IMG/VR virus record: IMGVR_UViG_2671181064_000008 | Strand: one strand, 5' to 3' | Origin: a virus | Taxonomy: Duplodnaviria; Heunggongvirae; Uroviricota; Caudoviricetes | DNA: 4,370 bases | Part shown: positions 1 through 4,370 of the stretch, one piece after another | Position numbering within the stretch: the first letter of the stretch is position 1 | Layout: each line of letters opens with the position of its first letter | The notes under the pieces: generated by a model | Seen by the model: the letters and a program-made list of their open reading frames with translations, nothing else | What the model was told of the DNA's origin: nothing | Databases searched by the model: none | Made by a program: the position numbers and the translations under genes

Positions 1-41
1 GCTTTGAACTCTTTAGAGTAACGTTGGGTTTTTCTGCTCAT
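1..41 (-). CDS. IS3-family transposase OrfA, N-terminal fragment (partial, runs off the window)
   Basis: Minus-strand ATG at 41..39 preceded by GAAGGAG with a 6-nt spacer. Translation MSRKTQRYSKEFK... matches my recollection of the IS600 OrfA N-terminus. Confidence 0.6.
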   Translation of the reverse strand, partial: MSRKTQRYSKEFK

Positions 42-105
42 TATTAGCTCCTTCTGATGCCATTCTATTTCAGGAAGGAGTGTCCGTTAAACTCAGGCTA
101 CCTCA
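1..105 (-). mobile_element. Left end of an IS3-family insertion sequence (IS600-like): terminal inverted repeat, 5' leader and start of orfA; the element continues beyond the window start
   Basis: Reverse complement of 105..77 is TGAGGTAGCCTGAGTTTAACGGACACTCC: it starts with TGA and has GGACAC at positions 21-26, the same layout as the IS3 left inverted repeat. A minus-strand ORF starts just inside it. The exact boundary at 105 is inferred from this motif. Confidence 0.7.
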
Positions 106-161
106 GGTTATTCGCTTCTGGGCATGGGCGGATCAACAAATGATAGACGGTAATGCAGATT

Positions 162-180
162 GTAACGCTCGCGGCGTTAC
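162..180. promoter_or_regulatory. 19-bp dyad GTAACGC-N5-GCGTTAC (iteron/operator-like site A)
   Basis: Exact 7-bp inverted arms gtaacgc (162-168) and gcgttac (174-180). The same architecture recurs at 371-389. Confidence 0.45.
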
Positions 181-370
181 AAAAAGTGCAATAGATCGCA
201 TCACTTTTATGTCTGGTTTTGCTGATGCGTTAATTCAGGTTGGATGGCTGGTCGAAAATGACGGAGGGCTTTCTCTACCTAACTTTGAACGTCATAACGG
301 AAAAAGCTCTAAAAAAAACGGGCGGTTACAAACGAGCGAGTAACAAAAATACGCGAACTGAAACGAAAAG

Positions 371-389
371 GTAACGCTGCCAGCGTTAC
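371..389. promoter_or_regulatory. 19-bp dyad GTAACGC-N5-GCGTTAC (iteron/operator-like site B); arms extend to 9 bp (GTAACGCTG / CAGCGTTAC)
   Basis: Exact inverted arms at 371-377 and 383-389. An extra GCGTTAC half-site sits at 406-412 and a GTTAC/GTAAC pair at 325-344. Confidence 0.45.
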
Positions 390-414
390 ACAAACGGATC
401 AAAAAGCGTTACCA

Positions 415-434
415 GAGGAAGAGGAAGAGGAAGA
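415..434 (+). repeat. (GAGGAA)x3 hexanucleotide tandem repeat encoding a Glu6 acidic linker in the initiator
   Basis: gaggaagaggaagaggaaga read directly; translates EEEEEED in frame 1. Confidence 0.8.
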
Positions 435-788
435 TCTAAATACTGATCTCCCCCTCGCCAAAAACGAGCGTCTAAAAAATTCGAGCCGGAGGCTATTGAG
501 CTGCCCGATTGGTTGCCGGAAACACTCTGGCATGAGTGGGTCCGGTTCAGACAGGCATTGCGAAAACCGATTCGAACGGAGCAGGGCGCTAACGGGGCGA
601 TACGGGAACTGGAAAAATTCCGTCAGCAGGGTTTTACACCTGAGCAGGTGATTCGACACAGCATCGCCAATGAATACCAGGGCCTGTTCGCGCCGAAAGG
701 TGTTCGGCCTGAGACGTTGCTCCGACAGGTTAACACCGTCTCGTTGCCGGACAGTGCGATCCCGCCAGGCTTCAGGGGGTAACGGACC

Positions 789-1230
789 ATGAAAAATATT
801 GCGACAGGCGGCGTTCTGGAACGCATCCGCCGACTGACCCCGCCACATGTAACCGCCCCATTCAGAACGGTAGCGGAGTGGCGCGAGTGGCAACTTGCTG
901 AAGGCCAGAAACGTAGCGAGGAGATCAACCGCCTGAATCGCCAGTTGCGGGTGGAAAAAATTCTGAATCGCTCAGGCATCCAGCCGTTGCACCGTAAATG
1001 CTCGTTTGCGAATTACCAGGTGCAGAACGACGGCCAGCGATACGCGTTAAGCCAGGCGAAATCCATCGCCGATGAACTGATGACCGGGTGTACAAATTTT
1101 GCGTTCAGCGGAAAACCTGGTACCGGGAAGAATCACTTAGCGGCAGCTATCGGGAATCGCCTGCTGAAAGACGGTCAGACAGTGATTGTGGTTACCGTGG
1201 CTGATGTTATGAGCGCCCTGCACGCCAGCT
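789..1230 (+). CDS. DnaC-like helicase loader (AAA+ ATPase; phage P-equivalent), N-terminal about 147 codons only; 3' part absent at the N run
   Basis: Translation MKNIATGG...NRSGIQPLHRKCSFANY...FSGKPGTGKNHLAAAIGNRLL...VTVADVMSALHAS aligns with E. coli DnaC (NRSGIRPLHQNCSFENY, FSGKPGTGKNHLAAAI Walker A, ITVADIMSAMKDT). ATG at 789 follows the upstream stop (780-782) with a G-rich stretch 9 nt upstream. No Walker B or sensor region in any frame after the N run. Confidence 0.8.
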
Positions 1231-3117: not shown

Positions 3118-3434
3118 NNNNNNNNNNNNNNNNNNNNNNNNNNNNNNNNNNNNNNNNNNNNNNNNNNNNNNNNNNNNNNNNNNNNNNNNNNNNNNNNNNN
3201 NNNNNNNNNNNNNNNNNNNNNNNNNNNNNNNNNNNNNNNNNNNNNNNNNNNNNNNNNNNNNNNNNNNNNNNNNNNNNNNNNNNNNNNNNNNNNNNNNNNN
3301 NNNNNNNNNNNNNNNNNNNNNNNNNNNNNNNNNNNNNNNNNNNNNNNNNNNNNNNNNNNNNNNNNNNNNNNNNNNNNNNNNNNNNNNNNNNNNNNNNNNN
3401 NNNNNNNNNNNNNNNNNNNNNNNNNNNNNNNNNN
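3118..3434. other. Run of 317 N (masked or gap); content unknown
   Basis: Read directly. Confidence 1.
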
Positions 3435-3956: not shown

Positions 3957-4310
3957 ATGGCACATATACAACTGGTCAAACAAACCTCTTCCGGATTACT
4001 TCTCCCGGCGACGCCGGAGAGTTGCGATTTTCTGCATCAAATCAAAATAGGTGAGTGGATACACGCAGACTTTAAGCGTGTGTGTAACTACGCATTCCAC
4101 AAGCGTTTTTTCAAACTCCTGCAACTGGGTTTCGATTACTGGACTCCGGTCGGTGGGGCGATCACGCCTCGCGAACGAAAACTGGTGTCCGGTTTCGTTG
4201 ATTACCTGTGTGAATCAGTAGGCCGGGAACATACGCCAGCTCTGAGCGAAGCCGCAGAGCAATTGAGGTGTACTGGCAATAGCGGACACTACCATTTGTT
4301 CTTTTTTTAA
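3957..4310 (+). CDS. Hypothetical prophage protein, 117 aa as written; may be truncated by a frameshift in a T7 tract at its 3' end
   Basis: ATG 3957 with GGAG 7 nt upstream (the TTG at 3915 in the ORF track lacks an RBS). Ends TAA 4308-4310 immediately after T7 (4301-4307). One extra T would keep the frame open to the window end. Confidence 0.45.
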   Translation: MAHIQLVKQTSSGLLLPATPESCDFLHQIKIGEWIHADFKRVCNYAFHKRFFKLLQLGFDYWTPVGGAITPRERKLVSGFVDYLCESVGREHTPALSEAAEQLRCTGNSGHYHLFFF

Positions 4311-4370
4311 GCAGCCATCTGATGATATTTTTCCCTGAAGGCTGCCGGGGAGATATTCCCCAGACGAGAG

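Follow-up and report, generated by a model that had tools for sequence, protein, structure and literature searches.

A replication origin embedded in an initiator gene is a classical mechanism class. In phage lambda the origin lies in the middle of gene O, where an AT-rich tract comes after the iterons, and the O protein gains residues when extra iterons are present (PMC7466680). In the lambda sequence we also find an 18-nt purine run on the coding strand, ~20 bp after iteron 4 and within the AT-rich region. Repeats inside an initiator gene are also seen in the YdaU/YdaV module of the Rac prophage. The K-12-type ydaU gene contains linker repeats of the sequence ATGTTCAAACA (L163:1253-1359), with four direct copies and one inverted copy, and these repeats may be the sites of the Rac origin (oriJ). 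For the initiator family considered here, no description of sites or of an origin was found in the literature searched, the coverage of which was incomplete, and a prior description is possible.

We have analysed a 4,370-nucleotide stretch of DNA (referred to here as the window) which is a 4.1-kb fragment of a Rac-like lambdoid prophage, probably from Shigella or E. coli. The features that concern us are as follows.

1-103, minus strand: end of IS600 (IS3 family), which truncates the initiator gene; IS600 transposase regions of many E. coli genomes match it at 100%
104-782, plus strand: remnant of a Rac-like replication-initiator gene (phrog_2509), delimited by alignment with intact 789-bp genes
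150-156, plus strand: decayed forward half-site GTAATGC, 12 bp before the next site
162-180, forward arm 162-168 and reverse arm 174-180: dyad 1 (cluster 1), GTAACGC-TCGCG-GCGTTAC, encoding the N-domain loop C-N-A-R-G-V-T
325-344, GTTAC at 325-329 and GTAAC at 340-344: weak pair, outside the consensus arrangement
371-389, forward arm 371-377 and reverse arm 383-389: dyad 2 (cluster 2), a perfect 9+1+9 palindrome, GTAACGCTG-C-CAGCGTTAC, in the part encoding the interdomain linker
406-412, minus strand: terminal reverse half-site GCGTTAC, 23 bp (two lattice steps) past the previous one and read A-L-P
414-434, plus strand: polypurine tract AGAGGAAGAGGAAGAGGAAGA, 21 nt, directly after the last half-site
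789-1230, plus strand: 5' part of ydaV, a DnaC/IstB-like helicase-loader gene (Pfam IstB_IS21, 1.7e-7), annotated as ydaV in relatives
~4257-4370: end of a second IS600 copy, which closes the right side of the window

The two IS600 copies thus bracket a 4.1-kb prophage fragment, and the right-hand copy truncates a DUF1367 gene (3957-4310). A masked run of N (1231-1271) cuts ydaV, the product of which is the presumed partner of the initiator, and replaces ~305 bp of its 3' end. A second masked run (3118-3434) lies where close relatives have the hokD toxin locus (L003:7352-7507). The remnant also contains an intact epoxyqueuosine reductase gene, QueH (2272-2958; Pfam 1.9e-65).

Intact 789-bp copies of the initiator gene are present in E. 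coli FDAARGOS_944, in phage vB_EcoS-666R9 and in the 'phage Rac' of strain 442/2. Alignment with these genes shows that homology begins at ~104 in the window; the window copy is without the first ~102 nt (codons 1-34), which are replaced by the IS600 end. Two extra A residues in the run at 311-318 cause a +2 frameshift and a 10-bp deletion at ~448 causes a second one. Because the 5' part is missing and because of the two extra A residues and the 10-bp deletion, the window copy is a pseudogene. The preliminary description placed the dyads inside a replication-initiator gene; the location is right, but the gene is not intact, being truncated by IS600 and frameshifted. It follows that the module in the window could act only with the initiator supplied in trans. 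The window copy is a dead remnant (a 'fossil'), in which the in-gene sites are nonetheless intact.

The intact initiator protein matches PHROG 2509, 'replication initiation protein', over its full length (residues 1-262, E 1.2e-89). It has a winged-helix-like N-terminal domain and a DnaT-like C-terminal domain, the C-terminal ~90 residues matching the C-terminal domain of DnaT (PDB 2ru8, E 9.5e-5), including the terminal PDSxIPPGFRG. No Pfam family matched the intact protein at E <= 0.01, Phage_rep_O and DUF1376 included. Two families were considered and rejected. For the lambda O family (Phage_rep_O), comparison of the N-domain with O using hhalign gave a probability of about 0.1 (0.1-0.14) and, for the YdaU/DUF1376 family, the name of which is an occasional label of the gene, comparison with K-12 YdaU gave 0.13; neither had a Pfam match. 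The N-domain family comprises 7000 cluster representatives (at 50% identity) at E <= 1e-3 and 4427 at E <= 1e-10. Its members are found in phages and prophages of Enterobacterales (epsilon15-like phages and the Rac-like prophages of E. coli and Shigella), Pseudomonas, Burkholderiales, Akkermansia and Planctomycetota.

The heptamer GTAACGC or its complement occurs in the window at 162, 174 (minus strand), 371, 383 (minus strand), 406 (minus strand) and 2075. These six copies compare with 0.34 expected, and none of 200 dinucleotide-preserving shuffles of the window reached this number. The preliminary description had reported six copies against an expectation of about 0.5, and the excess over chance is confirmed; its coordinates for the two dyads, for the half-site at 406-412 and for the GTTAC/GTAAC pair at 325-344 are all correct. 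The centre-to-centre spacing of the dyads that it gave, 209 bp, is likewise borne out for the window. In the intact genes the spacing is 207 bp, the difference being due to the two extra A residues in the window. The forward half-site that has decayed at 150-156 reads GTAACGC in phage 666R9, in Rac 442/2 and in several Enterobacterales. In intact enterobacterial relatives there is a third, intergenic dyad, 13-31 bp upstream of the start codon, which is absent from the window because the IS600 insertion removed that stretch. The status of the 325-344 pair as a site is uncertain: its GTAAC reads GTTAC in Rac 442/2 and the pair is not part of the conserved lattice. The sixth copy of the heptamer (2075-2081) is isolated, without a partner half-site, inside the open reading frame (1711-2124) of a Zn-ribbon protein. 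Two other loci (L008 and L009) have an isolated GTAACGC at gene position +2327, which may match the copy at 2075 if ~260 bp are concealed by the masked run.

Loci that encode the N-terminal domain were collected by a pattern scan of one genome per species, which gave 75, and 74 of these were scanned for dyads. They come from Enterobacterales, Pseudomonas, Burkholderiales, Planctomycetota, Verrucomicrobiota (including Akkermansia) and others, with a GC content of 0.39-0.68. Roughly half of the 74 loci have a GTAAC-N9-GTTAC dyad at both of two gene positions, ~137-173 and ~338-413, and most of the remainder have one in-gene dyad or half-sites only. When the half-sites of the 50 loci with full flanks are counted in bins of 100 bp, 107 fall at 100-199 and 118 at 300-399; there are 23 in the 100 bp before the start codon and 0-12 in every other bin. 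A group of Verrucomicrobiota (L044-L051, L055, L058, L064 and L066), in which the loop reads P-N-D-L-N-V-T or G-N-D-I-G-V-T, is without recognisable in-gene dyads; what it retains is one GTAACGC, ~56 nt upstream, and a reverse half-site at ~161.

Alignment of the homologous loci shows that the dyads are conserved beyond codon constraint, and more clearly than was expected. Both dyads are kept at ~67% DNA identity in the epsilon15-like phages TL-2011b, ZX5 and BUCT554 and in a Klebsiella phage, where dyad 2 is read V-T-P-T-A-L. In the window the same dyad, GTAACGC-N5-GCGTTAC, is read in a different frame as G-N-A-A-S-V-T. Across loci the half-sites of the linker occupy all three frames (forward sites, 22/59/8; reverse sites, 9/40/37). 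At dyad 1 the synonymous positions are essentially fixed. In a comparison of 57 loci, which share descent so that the counts are not independent trials, the Val codon is GTT in 52/52 loci with Asn (background in these genes, 29%), the Asn codon is AAC in 52/52 (62%), Gly is GGT in 37/43 (20%), Ser is AGC in 28/28 (23%) and Ala is GCT in 32/43 (19%). This Val is preceded almost without exception by S, G, C or R, the amino acids for which NGC codons exist.

Among 66 distinct close relatives, 5 of 49 half-site positions are variable compared with 93 of 461 other positions, a weak trend in the expected direction. Most of the variation within the three dyads (L003:3867-3885, 4058-4076 and 4265-4283, the latter two corresponding to 162-180 and 371-389 in the window) affects the central 5 nt and, in the forward arm, position 7. 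The reverse arms are invariant and the core of the forward arm is nearly so, two of the three dyads being coding. Since the same DNA is read in different frames and synonymous codons are fixed in other phyla, selection acts on the DNA and not on the peptide. The proposal that the palindromes have a DNA-binding function and are not a protein repeat is thus upheld by the other peptides and frames at dyad 2 and by the fixed synonymous codons at dyad 1. On this comparison of sequences, the dyads are very probably protein-binding sites that act at the DNA level. If anything, the loop G-N-A-x-S-V-T and the GNA, SVT and ALP units of the linker look like translations of DNA sites.

The repeat unit is the 7-bp half-site GTAACGC, placed on a lattice of 11-12 bp. 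Forward and reverse sites (FR) are spaced by 12 bp in 83 cases, successive forward sites (FF) by 12 or 11 bp in 39 and successive reverse sites (RR) by 11 or 12 bp in 28, and multiples of these distances also occur; RR spacings of 11, 12, 22, 23 and 33 bp were seen. The orientation is almost always convergent, with forward sites followed by reverse sites, often in unequal numbers (FFR, FRR, FFFRR, ffffrr), and the clusters of sites are about 190-210 bp apart. Across loci a run of 14-33 purines begins within 1-2 nt of the last reverse site; it is of the type (GAGAA)n in most phyla, Enterobacterales having (GAGGAA)n. When the whole ~5.4-kb locus is considered, its longest purine run falls at gene positions 330-520 in 42/68 loci. 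The AGAGAAGAG core of this tract is read as REEKRREE (frame 0, 21 loci), PEKRREEK (frame 2, 11 loci) or QRREEK (frame 1, 1 locus), and because the frames differ the tract, too, is conserved as DNA. The region at 400-439 in the window has a GC content of 0.43, so the tract is purine-rich but not especially AT-rich. We regard the tract at 414-434 as a candidate unwinding or helicase-loading region.

A natural variant of the half-site was found in five loci that have His (CAC) in place of Asn (AAC) at dyad 1. In 5/5 of these the partner Val codon changes from GTT to GTG, so the dyad becomes GTCACGC-N5-GCGTGAC and the change in the second arm is synonymous. The N-type loci have 286 A-type and 5 C-type half-sites and the H-type loci 4 A-type and 41 C-type. 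All the other copies in the H-type loci, those without a palindromic partner among them, also switch, from GTAAC/GTTAC to GTCAC/GTGAC. Two loci (L039 and L056) have GTCAC/GTGAC half-sites though their proteins look nearer to the GTAAC-type group; tentatively, these look like separate lineages in which the same switch may have occurred independently.

The loci have a single gene in common, the initiator (68/69 in an all-against-all comparison of open reading frames), and differ in the downstream partner, which is DnaC-like in 11 loci, a protein of ~455 aa in 13 and yet another protein in 10. The N-domain was modelled with AF2 (mean pLDDT 72). In the model, two helices (residues 61-68 and 73-80) precede a hairpin (84-91), and the chain is disordered from residue 123 onwards. 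The pLDDT is low for the loop that dyad 1 encodes, which in the Rac group is longer by four residues, corresponding to an extra half-site. Cluster 2 falls at residues ~123-137, the interdomain linker, after which the C-terminal domains vary. The structural neighbours of the N-domain are weak matches, mostly to winged-helix DNA-binding domains. As the initiator is the only shared gene and its N-domain has neighbours of the winged-helix type, the simplest explanation is that this domain recognises the half-sites, and we consider the initiator itself to be the likely binder.

Taken together, the data suggest that the iterons, bound by the initiator, and the polypurine tract would form a replication origin embedded in the initiator gene; we put the probability of this reading at about 0.65. 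We infer the initiator as binder, the firing of the origin and the position of melting as follows. The N-domain would bind the dyads and half-sites as iterons in three clusters, namely upstream of the start codon (in the enterobacterial relatives), in the coding sequence of the DNA-binding domain (162-180) and in the linker (371-412). Initiator molecules would fill the lattice and bridge the clusters, the duplex would open at or near the polypurine tract, and the DnaT-like C-terminal domain, together with the DnaC-like YdaV, would recruit the host helicase. Several points tell against the origin reading. The tract after the sites is purine-rich rather than AT-rich; the gaps of ~200 bp between clusters, and the cluster within the coding sequence of the DNA-binding domain, are unlike the compact array of lambda; the upstream dyad abuts the Shine-Dalgarno sequence, which also suits autoregulation; and some members of the family, the verrucomicrobial subgroup described above for example, have no recognisable in-gene dyads. 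A search of plasmid records for a replicon dependent on this initiator alone gave two records, of 41 kb (Pusillimonas) and 52 kb (E. coli). The former, the circular 'plasmid' of Pusillimonas sp. T7-7 (NC_015459.1; L164), carries integrase, capsid and tail genes and is the whole genome of a temperate phage, the replication module of which consists of a homologue of the window initiator and an ATP-binding loader. As a temperate-phage genome, it is uninformative on origin activity.

Other explanations of the palindromes have to be set against this reading. Both dyads of the window encode N-A-x-x-V-T in the same frame, as would be expected if a peptide repeat had produced them, but elsewhere the same DNA is read as VTPTAL, ALP, SVT or GNA in differing frames, the synonymous positions are fixed and one dyad is intergenic. 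These analyses refute a peptide repeat and, with the shuffles failing to reach the number of heptamers observed, it is extremely improbable that either a repeat or chance gave rise to the palindromes. The dyads might instead work as hairpins in RNA or single-stranded DNA, in mRNA stability, translation control or priming and primosome assembly, and not as sites in duplex DNA. Each dyad does fold stably (-7.6 to -9.4 kcal/mol, z -3.2 to -4.8), its arms are conserved around a centre that is hypervariable among close relatives, and the change from A:T to C:G on both arms is also what a stem would give. However, the unbalanced arrays leave many conserved half-sites without a pairing partner, these unpaired copies and the paired ones change in concert, a spacing of 11-12 bp between direct repeats suits a protein lattice and not a stem, and the deviations at position 7 are uncompensated. 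We therefore consider the hairpin reading quite unlikely. No Rfam covariance model matched the window at the gathering score. On the minus strand, dyad 2 (L003:4265-4283, window 371-389) followed by CTTTTCGTTT resembles an intrinsic terminator, though no more than shuffled sequences do.

If the sites are bound in duplex DNA, the binder could be a protein other than the initiator, from the host or from the phage; identification of the binder is indirect, and a DUF977 wHTH protein and the Zn-ribbon protein are encoded downstream of the initiator in the window. Against this, no gene besides the initiator is shared across the loci and the half-site variant changes along with the initiator lineage; we know of no host factor of such specificity across Enterobacterales, Planctomycetota and Verrucomicrobiota. 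A different binder thus seems very unlikely. The remaining alternative is that the sites are autoregulatory operators only, bound by the initiator or by another phage regulator, and that the true origin lies elsewhere. Autoregulation by way of inverted repeats of the iteron sequence is known from many plasmid Rep proteins and, in the intact relatives, the end of the upstream dyad is 6 nt ahead of the Shine-Dalgarno sequence (AAGGTG). However, a promoter scan around the dyads predicted none, with no sigma-70-like promoter in the region from -200 to +550, two of the three clusters are deep in coding sequence, and simple repression needs neither the polypurine tract nor a multi-site lattice of 11-12 bp. 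We consider it unlikely that the sites are operators alone. Autoregulation is plausible as an extra or alternative role, mainly for the upstream dyad, and is compatible with origin function.

In our judgement there is an even chance that the ~120-residue N-domain and the origin constitute a self-contained cassette of ~450-500 bp, in which the coding sequence of the protein contains its own binding sites, one cluster of sites dictates the conserved loop G-N-A-x-S-V-T of the DNA-binding domain and the linker peptide (GNA/SVT/ALP, REEKRREE) is largely a by-product of the DNA, with a half-site that is common to several phyla and has undergone at least one concerted switch from A:T to C:G. If this is true, a module of origin and initiator moves as a unit between phages with different helicase-loading systems, and the locus shows with unusual clarity how a regulatory code in DNA can constrain the sequence of a protein. 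Should the origin reading be right, the half-site, lattice and polypurine tract would give a sequence definition of the origin, for use in annotation and in building replicons, and the natural variants GTAAC and GTCAC would be a ready test of initiator-origin recognition. Constraint at the DNA level would also explain low-complexity linkers that are otherwise taken as meaningless.

How the locus compares with lambda bears on an analogy drawn in the preliminary description, that of a lambda-type origin. The analogy holds for the layout, with sites in the linker, a purine-rich tract and an adjoining loader gene; no sequence homology to O was detected, and the window copy is defective. As in lambda, dyad-symmetric repeats lie in the linker-coding part of the initiator gene, between a DNA-binding N-domain and a loader-recruiting C-domain; a purine-rich tract follows on the coding strand, the helicase-loader gene is immediately downstream and extra repeats lengthen the protein. 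In contrast with lambda, which has four adjacent iterons of 18-19 bp, the repeats here are 7-bp half-sites on a lattice of 11-12 bp, their clusters are about 200 bp apart with one inside the sequence that encodes the DNA-binding domain itself, the tract beside the sites consists of (GAGAA)n or (GAGGAA)n and is not AT-rich, and one half-site is conserved across phyla.

The other systems share less. No sequence relationship was found with the winged-helix Rep proteins of iteron plasmids, such as pSK41 RepA (PDB 4pta), and, unlike in those systems, the sites lie in the initiator's own coding sequence, in a temperate-phage context and, in the lineage of the window, with a DnaT-like C-terminal domain. 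With DnaT it is only the C-terminal domain that matches, and this domain is replaceable within the initiator family and unrelated to the dyads. Finally, the YdaU/YdaV module of K-12 Rac has the same gene order, a near-identical DnaT-like C-terminal domain and ydaV (93-95% DNA identity to the window, beginning at position 525 or 552 according to the record), and linker repeats in the initiator gene. Its N-terminal domain is different, with no homology detected, and its repeats have the different sequence ATGTTCAAACA. As K-12 YdaU shares the 3' part and differs in both the N-domain and the repeats, this suggests that N-domain and repeats have been exchanged together, which is what one would expect of an initiator and the origin that it serves.
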